Source: a virus (taxonomy: Duplodnaviria > Caudoviricetes). From it: DNA of 64,000 bases. Location: the IMG/VR virus record IMGVR_UViG_3300037067_026422. One strand, given 5' to 3'. Shown one piece after another: positions 25,855 through 62,855 of the stretch. Position numbers and translations under genes: made by a program. Position 1 is the first letter of the stretch. The number at the start of each line of letters is the position of its first letter. The notes under the pieces were generated by a model. It was given only the letters and a program-made list of their open reading frames with translations, made no database searches and was not told the origin of the DNA.

Positions 25855-28047
25855 TCAAGCGAATCGAGACAAGTAATCCTGGTAGGCTAATCTTATACCT
25901 TCTTCAAGTCCTGTCTGTGGTTTCCACCCCATAGCATATATACGAGAAGAATCTATAAGTTTTCTTGGGGTACCGTCCGGTTTAGAAGGATCTGTGACTA
26001 TTTTTCCTTGATATCCAACTATTTTTTTTATAATCTCTGCCAGATCCTTGATTCTCACTTCAAATCCGGACCCAACATTGATGGTTTTGGAGTTACTGTA
26101 GTTTTGCATGAGAAAAATACATGCATCTGCCAGATCATCCACATATAAGAATTCCCTTAAAGGATTACCGGTGCCCCATATGACTACTTCAGGAGCATTG
26201 CTAATTTTGGCTTCATGAATTCTTCTCAACAGTGCCGGAAGAACATGTGAATTATCAGGATGATATGAGTCACCAACCCCAAAAAGGTTTGTGGGCATAC
26301 AACTAATAAAATTTGTATTATACTGCCTGTTATATGACTCACACATCATTATTCCGGCAATTTTAGCCAGAGCGTAGGGAGCATTGGTAGGTTCAAGTGC
26401 TCCTGTCATCAGAGCCTCCTCGGTGATAGGCTGAGGAGCATATCTAGGGTAGATGCAGTTATGAACTACAAAACCATTACAGGTATAAGTATAATCCTCA
26501 TCAACAGATAAGTCATGCACCAGACCCTTGTACGGGATGTTTGATAGGGATTTTATTCCCATATATATACAACTGTCTTTAAACTCTACCGAGGTGTTTA
26601 TACTCTTACCTCTACTCTGGAATCTCATGTCTAATATATTTATACCAAATAGTTCAGCCCACTTACCAGTTATTCTTAAATGATACTTTGTATTTTGGTT
26701 TATGGTTCTACCGTCAAGAACTTTGGTAGCTGGAAGCTTTTTAATGTACACGCTGGATAGTACCCCCAATCGAGCAAGGAGCATCTGAAGGTCATACATA
26801 AGTTCTTTGGAGGTACTAGCAGTAGCAGCTAAATACTGACTCTGTCTGTCTTTTCTTGGGGCAAAGTGACCATCACCAAACCAATATCCTTTAATAAAAT
26901 CTTTTATTACTAAGTCTGATTCATTATATTTTATAAAATCGGGGATTATTTTAGGAAACGTGCCTTTAACATTACCCTCTTCATACCCTTCATAAAATTG
27001 ATTGAAATAGTCAAACAAAACTTCGTTTGAAACCGTCAGGGTATAGCATACCTTTTTCTTTACCAAGTTTAAACGATCGTCGGTAATCTTTAAAAGTTCT
27101 TCTTCTATTACTTTAAGCTTTTCTATATCTTTGGAAAAACCAACTTGATGTTTACTTCCTCTTTTTCCAGATTTATTACCTGATATATGCCCATCAGCAA
27201 CAAAGAACCCACTTATAAACCCTAACCCGTCAACCAAATCAAATTCTTTACCCTTTATCTTGAAACCATATGGGATGTCCCCATGCCTCCACCCATCAAG
27301 AATCGATCTGCTAAGTCCATGTATTCGACTAAATTCGCATAAATTAGCCCCTTTTTCAAAGCTTTTAAATTCAATAAAAGCATCATATTTCCTTTCTAAC
27401 CCTTTATCTGTAAAAATATTAACTTTTGTTGGATACCTCCGTTGGATGTCTATAGGTATAACTAATATGTCTTTTGGTGTTAGATCCCCAGCTTTTTTGA
27501 AACCTGAATCTACAGTATATATCCTATGTTCCGATGTACACTCTATTCTATTCCACCCCCAAAAATTAATTCTTAATATATTCTCTTCTATTTCTCTCTT
27601 GTGGGTTTTTAAGATAGGCATATACCTATTTTTGTCAGTGAGAACCTTATCCCCTACCCTAATATCCTGTATAAATTTGAATCCAGTATCTGTTTTTATT
27701 ATGGAGTCTGGCACAAAACAGCTGCTACCAAGTTGGAGTAACTTTTTAACCTTATTTCTATGGGCAGCTTCCAAAACATTACACTGTATCTGAAGATTTT
27801 GATAGATAAAATCAGCAGGATAAGTATTATTAGCATAGATCCCGCCTACTTTAGCTGCAGCGAGAAAAATGTAATCGGGTTTATTCTCTTCTATATACTG
27901 AAAAGTAGCATGTTGATCTATAAGGTCAAGATCTCCGTGGGAGATGGTTAGAATGTTATAGTAACCACCTTTTTTAAGCATTCTTACTATGGCTGACCCC
28001 ACCAGCCCTGAGTGACCTGCTACAAAGATCTTATTTTGGATATCCAT
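25855..28047 (-). CDS. fcl: GDP-L-fucose synthase interrupted by an intein
   Basis: GHSGLVG, AAAKVGGI, LGSS|CIYP, YALAK, PTNLFG and SHVLPAL motifs; spliced length 309 aa. Confidence 0.92.
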   Translation of the reverse strand: MDIQNKIFVAGHSGLVGSAIVRMLKKGGYYNILTISHGDLDLIDQHATFQYIEENKPDYIFLAAAKVGGIYANNTYPADFIYQNLQIQCNVLEAAHRNKVKKLLQLGSSCFVPDSIIKTDTGFKFIQDIRVGDKVLTDKNRYMPILKTHKREIEENILRINFWGWNRIECTSEHRIYTVDSGFKKAGDLTPKDILVIPIDIQRRYPTKVNIFTDKGLERKYDAFIEFKSFEKGANLCEFSRIHGLSRSILDGWRHGDIPYGFKIKGKEFDLVDGLGFISGFFVADGHISGNKSGKRGSKHQVGFSKDIEKLKVIEEELLKITDDRLNLVKKKVCYTLTVSNEVLFDYFNQFYEGYEEGNVKGTFPKIIPDFIKYNESDLVIKDFIKGYWFGDGHFAPRKDRQSQYLAATASTSKELMYDLQMLLARLGVLSSVYIKKLPATKVLDGRTINQNTKYHLRITGKWAELFGINILDMRFQSRGKSINTSVEFKDSCIYMGIKSLSNIPYKGLVHDLSVDEDYTYTCNGFVVHNCIYPRYAPQPITEEALMTGALEPTNAPYALAKIAGIMMCESYNRQYNTNFISCMPTNLFGVGDSYHPDNSHVLPALLRRIHEAKISNAPEVVIWGTGNPLREFLYVDDLADACIFLMQNYSNSKTINVGSGFEVRIKDLAEIIKKIVGYQGKIVTDPSKPDGTPRKLIDSSRIYAMGWKPQTGLEEGIRLAYQDYLSRFA
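26458..27720 (-). mobile_element. Intein (421 aa) with LAGLIDADG homing endonuclease
   Basis: Block A CFVPDSII, block B ECTSEHRI, FISGFFVADG and FIKGYWFGDG endonuclease motifs, terminal VVHN with +1 Cys. Confidence 0.93.
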
Positions 28048-53729: not shown

Positions 53730-54860
53730 TTAGTTTTCTTCCATAATCCTCTTCAACCGATCCGACCCTACTACAGAATCAGGAAGAATATTAAAGGTAG
53801 GACGAACTCTTCGGTGTATCCCCAACCATAGCTTGTTAAAATTCTTCTTATAATAATAAATCAACTCTCCAGCCAACTTTCCATAACGATCCTGCGCCGT
53901 CAGAAAAAAAGTTTTATGATCAACTTCTGCTGGCAGAATTTTCATCAATTCTTCATAGGTATCTTTCACCTTATTAAAAGGGTCATGGTGGAGGTCATAG
54001 ATTTGATGATATAAAGTATTCGTCATCTCACGAAACTCCTCCGGGATCCCCATCAAAAAATCTTTAGGGATATCCATTGCTTCTAAATCCCAAGCACCCC
54101 AAAATGCCAAAGGAGTCATATGGGACAATATCCGATGAATCTTACAATATTCATCCCCTTTGACTTTTATTTTAAAACCATTATGAAACGTTACTACAAA
54201 ACCTTCTTCAGTACATGGAAGCTTTTTGCAGTACTCATAGAGCTCATCAAGATCCCGAAACTCCACTGCCTCAACCACCGTAGCTCCGATTCTCTCTCCT
54301 TCGATTTTCATAGAAGCATAGGGCATTTCATTTCCAGTAGTGTTCTCGATGATCCCAAGCAAAACCATATCTTCACGATCTCCGTAATCTACCACAATCT
54401 TATTTTCTGGATAGATGATTTCAAAAAGATAAGAGTATCCTGGCAATATTTCCTGGTGTTTTATATGCTCCCGAAACCACTTTGTAGCCCATGCTGCCTG
54501 TTCTGATTCAAAAGACCCTTTAGTGGCTACATGCCATTGATTTTTGTATTTGAATAATAACCCAAGCGAGCCATCAATCTTGGTAAGCGTCAAGAAAGGT
54601 TTTCTGGCAAGCTCATAAAGATTGATCTTGCCCACAAGCTCAGATGCATTATGAAATTTTTGAAAAGGACGGCAAAGTACCTCTCCAGTAACTTTATTAA
54701 AAATGATTCCCCGGGCAGCACGGGTGACTTCATCCCAAAGACCCTCGTATTGACACTCTCTGGAATAGCAAAACAAAACAAGATCTTCCCATTCCTTGTG
54801 GGTGACCTGGGGATGCTCATAAAATTCTTTCAACAAAGGTAATGTAGTCATTTTGTCCAA
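53730..54860 (-). CDS. T4 Rnl1-like RNA ligase
   Basis: ARGIIF, PFQKF, motif I KIDGSL, EIIYPENKIVVDY, EGFVV and KVKGDEY. Confidence 0.9.
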   Translation of the reverse strand: MDKMTTLPLLKEFYEHPQVTHKEWEDLVLFCYSRECQYEGLWDEVTRAARGIIFNKVTGEVLCRPFQKFHNASELVGKINLYELARKPFLTLTKIDGSLGLLFKYKNQWHVATKGSFESEQAAWATKWFREHIKHQEILPGYSYLFEIIYPENKIVVDYGDREDMVLLGIIENTTGNEMPYASMKIEGERIGATVVEAVEFRDLDELYEYCKKLPCTEEGFVVTFHNGFKIKVKGDEYCKIHRILSHMTPLAFWGAWDLEAMDIPKDFLMGIPEEFREMTNTLYHQIYDLHHDPFNKVKDTYEELMKILPAEVDHKTFFLTAQDRYGKLAGELIYYYKKNFNKLWLGIHRRVRPTFNILPDSVVGSDRLKRIMEEN

Positions 54861-58621: not shown

Positions 58622-59260
58622 TTACCCACAAGAAGCAATATTAAAATCATTTAAAGAAATAAGATAATTTTCTTTATTCCCTGTTCTGATGTATCTAATA
58701 ATAGACTCAGTACCTACCACTACAGCTAACAGGGCTATATTTCGAGCAAGAGGATACTCACAAACATCAAGACCTGTAGATTTACTTGGAACCCGATATC
58801 GTTCATTCCAGGTTACTTCTGCACAATCCTGTGCCAAACCAATATGCAGACAATCAATTTTATTGTCTCGACAGTAATCAGTCACGATTTTTCGGCTTTC
58901 AGAATTATCAAACCCATCTACTACAATAGTTCCGGGTTTTAACAGCTTCTTTACATTGGCTGCAGTAAGCTCCTGGGAGATTGAATCAATAGATATCTTC
59001 ATGGCAAAAAACAGATAATTTTTAAGTGCTGCGGTTTTGAGTTGACCCACATCCCGACTGGTCCATATCTGATTGTTCCGATTATGATCAGCCACACGAT
59101 CCATGTCAATCACCGTGAGCTTCTGAAAACCCTGCCTGACCAGATTATTGGCAAGATTTGAACCTATAGCTCCGACACCACACAACGTAATGGGTTGTGC
59201 TGCAAGTTTTTTCAGAAGATCCACCCCACGGTAGACCTCTTCATGTACAAAAGTTTTCAT
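58622..59260 (-). CDS. ThiF/E1-like adenylyltransferase
   Basis: CGVGAIGS, IDMDRV...N.N.Q, DVGQLK and VDGFDN. Confidence 0.88.
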   Translation of the reverse strand: MKTFVHEEVYRGVDLLKKLAAQPITLCGVGAIGSNLANNLVRQGFQKLTVIDMDRVADHNRNNQIWTSRDVGQLKTAALKNYLFFAMKISIDSISQELTAANVKKLLKPGTIVVDGFDNSESRKIVTDYCRDNKIDCLHIGLAQDCAEVTWNERYRVPSKSTGLDVCEYPLARNIALLAVVVGTESIIRYIRTGNKENYLISLNDFNIASCG

Positions 59261-59460
59261 AGATTCTCTTCAATCATTTTTTTTGTCTGTTCTTGCTCTG
59301 AATAAAGCATAAGAGAACACAAGTTAAAATCTTCTTTTTGTCTGTTCATTGAAGCATCAAACCAGCTACACTGACCTACATGATAACCTATCGTATCTAA
59401 GGTCATTTTAGGTCCTCCAGATTTCAATTGTACAACATCACCTTGCTTTAAATCTGACAT
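59257..59460 (-). CDS. YodC/DUF2158-like small protein
   Basis: GDVVQLKSGGPKMT..C.WF. Confidence 0.75.
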   Translation of the reverse strand: MSDLKQGDVVQLKSGGPKMTLDTIGYHVGQCSWFDASMNRQKEDFNLCSLMLYSEQEQTKKMIEENL

Positions 59461-59595
59461 AAAACCTTTTCCTTCAAAGTTATACAAGCTTAACTTCATA
59501 TGGTTGATAACGGGCACCGTAGAGTCCCGTAAGAAATCGAGTCAATATATTCCTATCTCCCCAATATACTATTTTATAATGAGAGATGTAAAATT

Positions 59596-59984: not shown

Positions 59985-60019
59985 AATAAAAGAGGGACCC
60001 CTTTACCCGGAGGCCCCTC
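59985..60019 (-). terminator. Rho-independent terminator
   Basis: GAGGGGCCTC-CGGGTAAA-GGGGTCCCTC followed by TTTTATT on the minus strand. Confidence 0.7.
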
Positions 60020-60065: not shown

Positions 60066-60229
60066 AATGATCAAGAATCAATAACCATCGCCACTTATAA
60101 TAATTCTCCCCCTCTACCGACTGAGGTACAGACCCTCTTAATCCTTTTGTGGTAAGGACTTAGAGGGTCTGAGCGGAATTGAACCGCTGACCGGAGTTTG
60201 CTATGGCTCCCTATCAATTTTTGATCATT
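60066..60229 (-). ncRNA. Circularly permuted tRNA-mimic RNA B (YrlA-like architecture)
   Basis: Minus strand reads CTCC-GGTC-AGCGG TTCAATT CCGCT-CAGACCC-[29-nt hairpin linker]-GGGTCTG-TA-CCTC AGTCGGTA GAGG-G-GGAG; the flanks pair (AATGATCAA/TTGATCATT). Confidence 0.8.
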
Positions 60230-60306
60230 CTCATGTTTTGAGTCTGGGACAATCAAAACACTAACACAAAATTTTAAACTGGTACGCAAAAAGATAAAAA
60301 TAAGAT

Positions 60307-60419
60307 CTTTTGTTTATACTCTAAATGCTCTCCCAATCTGAGCTACAATCCCCATATATTTTATAGGGGGGAAAGGAGGGAATCGAACCCCCGACCTTTA
60401 GTTATTAGCATAACAAAAG
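60307..60419 (-). ncRNA. Circularly permuted tRNA-mimic RNA A (YrlA-like architecture)
   Basis: Minus strand reads CTAAA-GGTC-GGGGG TTCGATT CCCTC-CTTTCCC-[16-nt linker]-GGGATTG-TA-GCTC AGATTGGGA GAGC-A-TTTAG; the flanks pair (CTTTTGTT-ATGCT/AGTAT-AACAAAAG). Confidence 0.78.
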
Positions 60420-60443
60420 CTTTTTAAAGTAATAACTCAGGAC

Positions 60444-61214
60444 TTACTTTACTGTAAACCCTTCGTTAATATAATTGAAAAATGTTTGTCCAACTTTAAC
60501 TGCTTCAACTTCCTGTGCATTTGCTCTCGCTCGAGCAATCTTTACTCCTGCAATCAAACGATCGATACGATTAAGAATCTGACTCTTCTGCTTTGGTGAT
60601 AATGCTCCGCATGCAAAAGTTGAGGTCCAGGTACCGACTGGCTCATCACTCTGAACAATTTCTGTCTGAGCCTGAAATTTATCTGTAGCCTCAGCCTTTG
60701 TAATTACAATGGGGGTTTTCTTTGTCCGCACACGTTCAATTGGAGCTGACTTCCAAATCCCTACCTTTGTGGGATCAAGAGTCCAGACTTTTGCCGGATC
60801 AAGTGTCGGAATTTCCCCATAAACCTTTCGGATGCGCTCCAACACGGATTCCATCTGCACCAGGAATGTTACGGGGGCATTCTCAAGAATGGTCTGTGTG
60901 GTACCATCCGGAAGCTCCACTATAATGTCAGCTCTGGCATTTTGATTCGCCCGTTCCTTCTGGATCTCAATATCCATAAACCGAACAATATGCTCCTGTG
61001 CATAATCAAGCTTATCCTGAACAGTCGTGACCATCGGGGTAAATTCTTCATCGGGGCGGTCCTTATCCTCTTCACGAAAAGGACTATAGCTTTTTCTAGA
61101 TTCCAGAAAATGAGCTGAACGTTGATTAAATGTTTTTGAAGTCTCTTCAAGAATCTTAGCAAAAACATCCTTGGCTTCTTTTTCCACGGCTAAAAGCTCA
61201 TGAAGTAATCCCAT
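60444..61214 (-). CDS. Uncharacterised 256-aa protein directly upstream of the tRNA-mimic RNAs
   Basis: GGGGG RBS-like stretch; helical N- and C-terminal regions with a central RTKK beta-hairpin-like segment; no Ro60/TROVE or vWA features. Confidence 0.8.
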   Translation of the reverse strand: MGLLHELLAVEKEAKDVFAKILEETSKTFNQRSAHFLESRKSYSPFREEDKDRPDEEFTPMVTTVQDKLDYAQEHIVRFMDIEIQKERANQNARADIIVELPDGTTQTILENAPVTFLVQMESVLERIRKVYGEIPTLDPAKVWTLDPTKVGIWKSAPIERVRTKKTPIVITKAEATDKFQAQTEIVQSDEPVGTWTSTFACGALSPKQKSQILNRIDRLIAGVKIARARANAQEVEAVKVGQTFFNYINEGFTVK

Positions 61215-61223
61215 AAAACCCCC

Positions 61224-61355
61224 CTATATATAAGATGATATCCAATAGATATCTATTAATATATATAGGGCAACAAAGTATAGGCAAATATAAAATATTT
61301 TATTTTTATCACTTCCACTTCTATCATGCCCTACTTTAAGGATGACTTGATTTAT
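61224..61355 (-). pseudogene. Degenerate MNQAI-family copy (ATA in place of ATG)
   Basis: INQVILKVGHDRSGS aligns to the family leader, with the same stop-T-start spacing. Confidence 0.5.
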
Positions 61356-61356
61356 A

Positions 61357-61461
61357 CTATAAATTCCTGCTACCCCTACAGCTCCTGCTACTGCTATGCC
61401 TCCTGCTCCTGCTACAGCTACTGCTACTATCATAACCTATTCTAATAATGGCTTGATTCAT
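61357..61461 (-). CDS. Ser/Arg-rich micro-protein, MNQAI family (34 aa)
   Basis: MNQAIIRIGYDSSSSCSRSRRHSSSRSCRGSRNL; leader identical to copy 1. Confidence 0.65.
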   Translation of the reverse strand: MNQAIIRIGYDSSSSCSRSRRHSSSRSCRGSRNL

Positions 61462-61462
61462 A

Positions 61463-61657
61463 TTATTTACTACAGCTCCCACTCTCACTCCTACTTTTGC
61501 TACAGCCCCAGCTCCTGCTCCAGCTACTGCTTCGGCTACCGATCCTGCTACCACTACTACTAACCCTACGGCTACAACCTCTACTCCAACTCCTGCTATA
61601 GCTACCACTCCCGCCACAGCTACTATTATAACTTACTCTAAGTATGGCTTGATTCAT
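61463..61657 (-). CDS. Ser/Arg-rich micro-protein, MNQAI family (64 aa)
   Basis: MNQAILRVSY leader followed by an S/R/G/C/W core. Confidence 0.65.
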   Translation of the reverse strand: MNQAILRVSYNSSCGGSGSYSRSWSRGCSRRVSSSGSRIGSRSSSWSRSWGCSKSRSESGSCSK

Positions 61658-62438: not shown

Positions 62439-62855
62439 TTATAGGGTAATACCAATAAAGAAAGATCCAAAAAATTTAATATTAACCTTTATTTTCTTAA
62501 CAATCGTGGTTTTTTCTTTATTTATCCCCCCGACATAATAGCAATAGCAGGATGATCGACTACCACACCTTATACCACAAAGATACGCTTTGTACATAGC
62601 CTTTACCCAAGATCTCATTGTAGCATTGTCAATAGCACTCGCCACTATGTTCCTCGTCCCAGGATGTGTATGATACCACCCAATAACCTTTGGATTAATA
62701 GCTTGGGAATAATCCATCTCTACAGAAGTTGCTGCCCCCATGGTATGATACTTCTGATATCCAATAAAAGCTAATCTCTTATCGTATAGATATATTCGGA
62801 TACCATATAGGAACCAACACTCTTCTTTAAATTTCATATCCACTAAATTTTGCAT
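62439..62855 (-). CDS. JAB/MPN+ metallopeptidase domain protein
   Basis: E...GWYHTHP......S..D (JAMM motif). Confidence 0.75.
   Translation of the reverse strand: MQNLVDMKFKEECWFLYGIRIYLYDKRLAFIGYQKYHTMGAATSVEMDYSQAINPKVIGWYHTHPGTRNIVASAIDNATMRSWVKAMYKAYLCGIRCGSRSSCYCYYVGGINKEKTTIVKKIKVNIKFFGSFFIGITL

Follow-up and report, generated by a model that had tools for sequence, protein, structure and literature searches.

A gene of the protein family DUF7873 and a permuted tRNA-like RNA encoded downstream of it on the same strand form a conserved, portable cassette with the architecture of YrlA-type Y RNA loci, and in most of its carriers this cassette is independent of Ro60 genes. The case from which we start is a 64,000-nucleotide (nt) stretch of viral DNA (IMG/VR record IMGVR_UViG_3300037067_026422; Duplodnaviria, Caudoviricetes), analysed at its full length and referred to below as the window, in which a DUF7873 gene on the minus strand is followed by two such RNAs, RNA A and RNA B. 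To our knowledge, the tRNA-mimicking Y RNAs of bacteria and phages have so far been found and interpreted only via Ro60; here the same RNA architecture is tied to a large DUF7873 family, whose fold has no known relative.

The cassette is recognised by its recurrence. We fetched 80 loci from IMG/VR, and the analyses use 84 loci (for a hand-written descriptor of the RNA module and for the neighbouring genes) or 85 sources (for R1, a covariance model built from 29 modules, with which hits of at least 48 bits were counted over 537 kb on both strands). R1 detects a module 40-600 nt downstream of the DUF7873 gene, on the gene strand, in 78 of the 85 phage sources, and at this threshold it detects none elsewhere in the 537 kb on either strand, which together exclude chance. 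The hand-written descriptor finds a module at most 700 nt downstream in 72/84 loci, its high-scoring hits numbering 70 downstream versus 4 anywhere else on either strand. Among the seven exceptions to R1, four show hits of lower score (30-41 bits) at the corresponding position, one offers only 175 nt of downstream sequence, one has a tRNA array directly after the gene, and one has no more than a 17-bit hit. A tblastn search located DUF7873 in 75 cultured phage records, with hosts that include Vibrio, Rhizobium, Gordonia, Klebsiella/Serratia, Arthrobacter, Ralstonia, cyanobacteria and Rhodococcus. The Rfam YrlA model itself matches 130-400 nt downstream on the same strand in one cultured phage each of Rhizobium, Arthrobacter, Ralstonia and Gordonia, and in three of these four the position of the match falls into an annotation gap of about 400-480 nt.

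The RNA is the only conserved neighbour of the gene, since in an all-against-all clustering of open reading frames (ORFs) every other protein family occurs in at most 6 of the 84 loci; gene neighbourhoods are otherwise unrelated across the phage loci that have the pair. Nor is the module a by-product of tRNA arrays, as 24 of 60 loci are free of tRNA genes within 2.5 kb. Between stop codon and module lie 37 to 473 nt, in some cases including tRNA genes. The proposal of an earlier reading of the window, made from its sequence alone, that gene and RNA may form a conserved cassette is thus borne out in phages. The R1 counts carry the caveat that tandem isoacceptor tRNAs give false hits of up to 60 bits: two adjacent tRNA-Pro genes (L134:1319-1486, minus strand; about 140.3-140.5 kb in G048) reach that score. 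Tandem isoacceptors are a source of false positives for any YrlA-type search, and because of this artefact isolated R1 hits of 45-53 bits within jumbo-phage genomes were left uncounted.

Two further observations concern the sequence beyond the module. In 17 of 60 loci a tRNA-like gene of conventional order starts 39-51 nt after the permuted module (e.g. L052:3483-3555, L064:3478-3550, L068:3481-3553 and L053:3540-3611), and 16 of the 17 pass the Rfam tRNA threshold. Several of them have odd anticodons (ATT, ATA, ATG, or anticodons of two or four bases) or are of a "Ser" type that has no long arm, and several have weak A/T-rich acceptor stems and no encoded CCA; in those clades the following gene may be the RNA's second head. 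ARAGORN identifies, on a phage contig of 209 kb, a transfer-messenger RNA (tmRNA) gene with a tag ending in KLAA (L055:5005-5395, plus strand) about 1.7 kb downstream of the DUF7873 cassette.

The protein encoded in the window matches Pfam DUF7873 (PF25283) with an E-value of 3.3e-71 and 240.3 bits (cut-off 27) over residues 1-250, corresponding to profile positions 1-242 of 244, and is thereby a member of the family; Pfam gives no other match. The sequence-only reading had likened it to an uncharacterised family of actinobacteria and phages, which can now be named as DUF7873, present in actinobacterial and many other phages, and had rightly noted that it is too short for Ro60 and lacks the vWA domain: with 256 residues it has neither the TROVE HEAT-repeat ring nor the C-terminal vWA domain that make up the approximately 500 residues of Ro60. 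The RVRTKK segment singled out in the same reading is there as well, at residues 161-166, with K166 nearly invariant in an alignment of 31 sequences. The description of the protein as largely helical did not hold, as the AlphaFold2 (AF2) model (predicted local distance difference test score, pLDDT, 86; predicted template modelling score 0.74) is mixed, with four long helices and long beta-hairpins. The family comprises about 2,500 clusters at 50% identity, 2,153 of them at an E-value of 1e-10 or below, and the best 150 clusters all consist of single-domain proteins of 244-275 amino acids (aa).

The structure prediction that had been proposed as a check yielded this model, and the searches made with it yielded no relative of the fold. 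Foldseek returned nothing in the PDB at an E-value of 0.001 or below; the best match of a VIA-align wide search (Z 8.3) is a designed helical protein; BFVD and ESM Atlas gave only DUF7873 itself or template modelling scores (TM) below 0.45; and an ESM Atlas feature search from which the DUF7873 clusters had been removed gave no named family (best score 0.81). PHROGs and PADLOC contain no family that matches the protein. Ro60 was not among the structural matches, a result on which these fold searches are weak by the tools' own caveat. The absence of structural relatives of the model in these searches does not prove that the DUF7873 fold is new.

The 422 bases that separate the DUF7873 stop codon from the next ORF contain the two permuted tRNA-like domains (Table 1). 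Both RNA A and RNA B have the YrlA core, namely the T-arm, the acceptor hairpin, the D-arm and a stem formed by the flanks, and both stay below the gathering score of 69 bits of the Rfam YrlA family (RF02553), RNA A with 38.2 bits (E-value 2.8e-6) and RNA B with no match; permuted tmRNA models cover only the T-arm and acceptor part of RNA B, and no Rfam family reaches its gathering score anywhere in the window. The Rfam and R1 bounds of RNA A place the start of the RNA 17-38 nt past the DUF7873 stop codon, in agreement with the distance of about 25 nt on the same strand given in the sequence-only reading, which was also correct that no terminator precedes the end of RNA B: the hairpin at 60019-59992 is the only terminator-like site on the minus strand at the unit. 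The promoter-like site upstream of the ORF is a consensus match only, and such sites are no commoner in the region than in shuffled sequence. In the linker between the RNAs (60230-60290) we found no promoter-like or terminator-like site, and this, together with its conservation, fits a single RNA of about 360 nt with two heads.

Table 1. Features of the DUF7873 cassette in the window (positions counted from the first letter of the 64,000-nt stretch)
Feature	Coordinates	Strand	Remarks
Sigma-70-like promoter match	61258..61287	-	9/12 consensus positions; upstream of the DUF7873 ORF
DUF7873 gene	60444..61214	-	256 aa, isoelectric point (pI) 5.8; end coordinate includes stop; PF25283 match
RNA A, permuted tRNA-like domain	60291..60427	-	Rfam YrlA below threshold; R1 61.2 bits at 60317-60406
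RNA A outer stem	60408-60420 with 60307-60319	-	
RNA A T-arm	60376-60392	-	
RNA A acceptor 3' strand and C-CCT	60365-60375	-	followed by A/T-rich spacer
RNA A acceptor 5' strand	60346-60352	-	
RNA A D-arm	60327-60343	-	
Linker between RNA A and RNA B	60230..60290	-	GCRTACCAG block and GTCCCAGA block, kept in four relatives
RNA B, permuted tRNA-like domain	60066..60229	-	R1 59.7 bits at 60101-60202; with outer stem -62.2 kcal/mol, z-score -5.2
RNA B long outer helix	60210-60229 with 60066-60084	-	at least 18 pairs
RNA B T-arm	60172-60188	-	
RNA B acceptor hairpin, closed	60129-60171	-	43 nt
RNA B D-arm	60111-60126	-	
Intrinsic terminator-like hairpin with T-run	59992..60019	-	10 pairs, 7 of them G-C; T-rich tail; closes the unit

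Taken alone, RNA A has an unremarkable folding z-score of -1.27, which is due to two U-U mismatches in its acceptor stem (5 of 7 pairs formed). Its relatives have perfect 7-bp acceptor stems, and in the four closest ones these stems are wholly different in sequence and still complementary, i.e. they have undergone compensatory changes. The acceptor stem of RNA B (GACCCUC/GAGGGUC) is retained in relatives whose DUF7873 protein is 44-46% identical, and these relatives have a module of the RNA B type only. Judged by this distribution, RNA B looks like the ancestral partner within the clade and RNA A like an addition.

Comparison of the modules from all phages extends this picture. In the 29 diverse modules 20 of 21 pairs have changed on both sides, a figure that is partly due to construction, because these modules were chosen by a descriptor that demands pairing. 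The flanks of the module pair with a median energy of -21 kcal/mol, versus -11.8 kcal/mol with the flank of another locus (72 RNAs), and the z-score of flank pairing is below -2 in 49 of the 72; a long helix thus stands in for the anticodon arm, which is also the case in Y RNAs. After the 7-bp acceptor stem, 53 of 78 modules have a single discriminator base and then precisely CCA, for which the chance expectation is about 1 in 64; an A/T-rich spacer of 3-91 nt comes next, and then the 5' strand of the acceptor stem, which usually starts with G. The other modules, including RNA B of the window, have a continuous closed acceptor hairpin. We found no universal protein-binding motif in the outer helices, only motifs of subgroups: about one fifth of the loci have AGCTTYA near position -43, sometimes repeated approximately every 22 nt, and RRCGAAAG near +20 (e.g. 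L072:3274-3318 and L026:3617-3651), which could be subgroup-specific protein-binding or promoter elements.

Since the RNAs belong to the YrlA class, their relationship to Ro60 has to be considered. Pfam TROVE has no match among the large ORFs of the window and is absent from 47 of 49 DUF7873-bearing virus records. The closest relative of the window phage, with a 78% identical DUF7873 protein, encodes 5.4 kb upstream of it a 520-aa protein (L087:4410-5972, minus strand; G001:60912-62471) in which Pfam detects only a weak vWA match and no TROVE domain. The AF2 model of this protein (pLDDT 81.5) matches Ro60 structures over its full length: the top twelve distinct fold hits are all Ro60/TROVE (E-values from 5e-11 to 1e-7, TM 0.5-0.6; the Foldseek matches include 9kop, 2nvo, 1yvp and 9l5y), and the lower-ranked matches are vWA domains only. 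On the evidence of the predicted structure, this 520-aa family of huge phages is a full-length structural homologue of Ro60, and as Pfam TROVE misses it, surveys based on TROVE undercount phage Ro60. The last, truncated ORF of the window is 77% identical to the gene adjoining the Ro60-like gene of the relative, and a JAB peptidase gene is syntenic too; by this synteny the window phage almost certainly carries a divergent Ro60 a few kilobases upstream of the cassette, just past coordinate 64000.

RNA A and RNA B could accordingly be ordinary Y RNAs of a Ro60-type protein, either the divergent Ro60 of the phage or the Rsr of its host, with DUF7873 in an accessory role, for instance as an effector tethered to Ro60 by the tRNA-like domain, in analogy to Deinococcus, where a Y RNA tethers PNPase to Ro60. 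Besides the class of the RNA and the inferred proximity of the two genes here, it speaks for such a role that R1 gives 56-71 bits to RNAs beside TROVE genes and that in Rhizobium phage TM21B, G031 and G036 a Ro60-like gene lies about 3-7 kb from DUF7873. We nevertheless consider it rather unlikely, given the distribution of the genes and the sequences of the RNAs. A search of 49 phage records with three profiles (Pfam TROVE, the divergent family A5, and DUF2828/DUF7788) detected a Ro60-like gene in only 8, and in 4 of the 22 records that are at least 90% complete, which leaves 41/49 and 18/22 with none; the cassette is present in 18 complete genomes of 53-230 kb in which these profiles detect no Ro60-like gene, with the reservation that a more divergent Ro60 or a host Rsr would escape them. 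In G003, about 300 kb separate the Ro60-like gene from DUF7873, beside which RNA A and RNA B remain; in G002 both RNAs occur in the absence of a Ro60-like gene.

Where both proteins occur, each tends to have an RNA of its own. In G048, G031, G049 and G032 a strong tRNA-like RNA lies next to the Ro60-like gene, at a site distinct from that of the DUF7873-linked RNA, and in G001 and G003 there is only a separate weak hit (24-30 bits) just upstream of the Ro60-like gene. The RNAs also differ: a 5' motif, CGUAGA...WACUUCG, is found in 5 of 6 modules beside Pfam-TROVE genes versus 0 of 72 DUF7873-linked RNAs, and the motif GNCGAAN0-1G, tied to Ro60 binding by Chen et al. (2014), is found in 1 of the 72; neither is present in RNA A or RNA B. 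The tRNA-like core is thus common to both groups, while the presumed protein-binding helices differ according to the neighbouring protein. The "non-Ro" label of the sequence-only reading hence does not hold as worded for the surroundings of the cassette in this particular lineage and agrees with the profile results for the large majority of the records. A YrlA-like module is also adjoined by proteins of the DUF2828/DUF7788 type, which have weak matches to vWA_Ro60 and constitute a third protein family so paired (L135:301-1683 with an RNA at L135:1785-1912; L133:2951-3601 with an RNA at L133:1987-2100).

In cellular genomes DUF7873 is concentrated in Cytophagales, Microscillaceae, Saprospiraceae and Chitinophagales, and the pairing rule, valid for phages and for some of the cellular members, is not general. 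An adjacent RNA was found in only 14 of 38 homologue loci of bacterial and archaeal assemblies. On a Cytophagales-like contig of 1 Mb the DUF7873 gene stands amid genes for TerC, PNPOx, GSCFA and ribosomal protein L9, and a convergent gene follows after 60 nt, which leaves no room for a downstream RNA; this housekeeping locus implies that DUF7873 can exist without an RNA encoded in cis. The same genome has a second DUF7873 paralogue, with the RNA directly downstream. The sequence-only reading had suggested scanning the homologues for downstream RNAs and had stated that their general lack would speak against the idea of a joint system; the scan gave the opposite result in phages and, in part, such a lack among the cellular loci.

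Whether the conserved pair amounts to a functional DUF7873-RNA particle is, on comparative sequence evidence, an evenly balanced proposition. Weighing against it are the loose pairing in cellular assemblies and the housekeeping locus just described, the mildly acidic character of the protein (pI 5.8), the lack of a recognisable RNA-binding fold in the PDB, BFVD and ESM Atlas fold searches, the nearby divergent Ro60, which the RNAs of this lineage could serve, the limited reach of the Ro60 profiles, and the built-in part of the pair statistics. If the particle exists, the unit would be transcribed as one RNA, from which the non-coding part would be cut out. The acceptor stem, the N-CCA sequence and the A/T-rich spacer predict cleavage by RNase P and a tRNA-like 3' end; RNA A of the window, with its C-CCT, could be trimmed, after which the CCA-adding enzyme would complete it, and RNA B would remain a closed hairpin. 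DUF7873 would bind the RNA, probably on the helices that do not belong to the tRNA-like part and that are unlike the stems of Ro60-adjacent RNAs, and the resulting particle would be parallel to the Ro60-Y RNA complex, yet independent of it. In the most speculative step, the particle would, in the course of infection, display the acceptor/elbow half of a tRNA to enzymes that recognise tRNAs and act as a decoy or an adaptor, with host tRNA-directed nucleases or toxins and processing or repair enzymes as candidate targets. The full version of this scheme, i.e. a new kind of ribonucleoprotein unrelated to Ro60, with which phages capture or divert enzymes that recognise the acceptor or elbow end of tRNAs (for example anti-phage tRNA nucleases or toxins that modify CCA ends) and of which Bacteroidota domesticated the protein, seems doubtful to us at present.

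In every case the RNA comes directly after the gene on its strand, and in the window no terminator separates it from the ORF; this position would also suit cis-acting elements in the 3' untranslated region of the DUF7873 mRNA, which would set the 3' end via RNase P or RNase Z or have a stabilising or regulatory effect on the message and would form no stable particle. The 7-bp acceptor stem and the G at +1 that most modules have are suited to RNase P. A simple cleavage signal, however, has no need of the permuted order, of two domains, of a conserved outer helix of such length or of an encoded CCA, the interval between stop codon and module is variable and at times occupied by tRNA genes, and many homologues in bacterial and archaeal assemblies have no such element; we therefore regard this explanation as unlikely. 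That the RNA acts alone as a tRNA decoy, e.g. as a competitive inhibitor of tRNA-directed nucleases, with DUF7873 as an unrelated protein co-travelling in a mobile unit, appears improbable: the idea has been raised in print for YrlA (Hughes et al. 2020; PMC7790460), the cassette often lies within phage tRNA arrays, and DUF7873 is neither basic nor of a known RNA-binding fold, but so tight a pairing over very diverse phages, with nothing else conserved, is hard to explain without functional dependence, and the chromosomal paralogue has the same arrangement.

Maturation into a working tRNA or tmRNA, from circularly permuted tRNA genes of the Cyanidioschyzon type or from a two-piece tmRNA-like gene, is very improbable, for although in 53/78 modules the 3' half, with CCA, comes before the 5' half, and permuted and beta-proteobacterial tmRNA models match weakly over the T-arm/acceptor part, the scores are 17-25 bits against gathering scores of 47-84, long irregular flank helices take the place of a 5-bp anticodon stem with a 7-nt loop, the whole window is free of tRNA or tmRNA calls by ARAGORN, and RNA B has G3:C70 and not the alanine pair G3:U70. 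Of the two candidates, a Cyanidioschyzon-type tRNA was rejected because no 7-nt anticodon loop is possible, given the outer helix of RNA B and the flank energies of the 72 RNAs, and a two-piece tmRNA was rejected on the ARAGORN result, the Rfam tmRNA_permuted scores of 17-20 bits versus 47 and the G3:C70 pair, a tag frame and pseudoknots not having been looked for.

The window is part of a large uncultured phage; close DUF7873 homologues are on contigs of 210-424 kb, and the window has genes for collagen-repeat proteins, glycosyltransferase, sigma factor and a T4-type RNA ligase. A megablast with 12 kb gave no match among cultured phages, and an exact 40-mer gave none in IMG/VR. The cassette is flanked on the minus strand by genes for a ThiF/E1-like protein (58622-59260, also matched by PADLOC E1-E2 models), a small DUF2158 protein (59257-59517) and a JAB/MPN peptidase (62439-62855), which are syntenic with the Ro60-like gene in the relative and suggest a ubiquitin-like conjugation set beside the RNA genes. 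The ligase, of the T4 Rnl1 type (53730-54860, minus strand; PF09511, E-value 8e-23), is about 6 kb from the cassette and belongs to an RNA-repair theme, yet conservation of this neighbour does not extend to other loci. Immediately upstream of the DUF7873 promoter region are short overlapping ORFs rich in Gly/Ala/Val or Ser/Arg (61224-61657, minus strand), and further away a gene for an NAD-dependent epimerase/dehydratase (25855-28047, minus strand) is split by an intein with a LAGLIDADG homing-endonuclease domain.

In the literature we found no paper that names DUF7873 and no report that YrlA-like RNAs have a partner other than Ro; the motifs treated in a 2026 preprint on tRNA mimics of bacteria are different ones. 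New here are the structurally supported divergent Ro60 near the cassette, the pattern of one RNA per protein, the missing Ro motif, the N-CCA statistic and the absence of any other conserved neighbour. Annotations today show such loci as a "hypothetical protein" and, after it, about 400 nt with no annotated feature. The family is represented in phages that are in culture and tractable, namely those of Ralstonia (RSL1), Klebsiella, Vibrio, Rhizobium, Gordonia and Arthrobacter. If DUF7873 does bind the RNA, it would be a second, independent protein platform for tRNA mimicry and a direct handle on the long-open purpose of the tRNA-like domain in such RNAs. The encoded N-CCA and the 7-bp acceptor stem lead to concrete predictions, namely cleavage by RNase P, a two-piece RNA and possible charging.

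Among the closest known systems are the YrlA-class Y RNAs of bacteria and phages with Ro60/Rsr. In them, as in the DUF7873-linked RNAs, T-arm, acceptor hairpin and D-arm follow one another in permuted order and are carried by a long helix between the two ends of the molecule, and the RNAs occur in tandem, encoded beside the gene of their protein. With the Rfam YrlA model, Ro60-adjacent RNAs of comparable genomes reach the same 32-40 bits as DUF7873-linked ones, and those beside TROVE genes 36-40 bits. YrlA of Mycobacterium smegmatis has the same 7-bp acceptor form and is cleaved by RNase P and receives CCA in vivo (Chen et al. 2014; PMC4201824). Unlike YrlA, the RNAs described here have a DUF7873 neighbour instead of a TROVE/vWA protein and mostly reside in genomes with no Ro60-like gene, do not have the 5' motif of Ro60-adjacent RNAs, encode CCA in two thirds of the modules, and in the case of RNA A score below the Rfam gathering threshold. 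Two-piece tmRNA (permuted ssrA) has the same order of T-arm, acceptor 3' strand, CCA, spacer and acceptor 5' strand and a similar predicted processing into two base-paired pieces; it differs in that here the D-arm is full, the alanine identity pair is absent and the partner gene is not SmpB. Ro60 itself, including that of Thermus phage phiLo (PDB 9l5y), resembles the DUF7873 system in that the protein gene stands beside tRNA-like non-coding RNAs in phages, and a true divergent member is encoded near the cassette in the closest relative, whereas DUF7873 is a 256-aa protein of predicted mixed alpha/beta structure with neither a TROVE nor a vWA domain.

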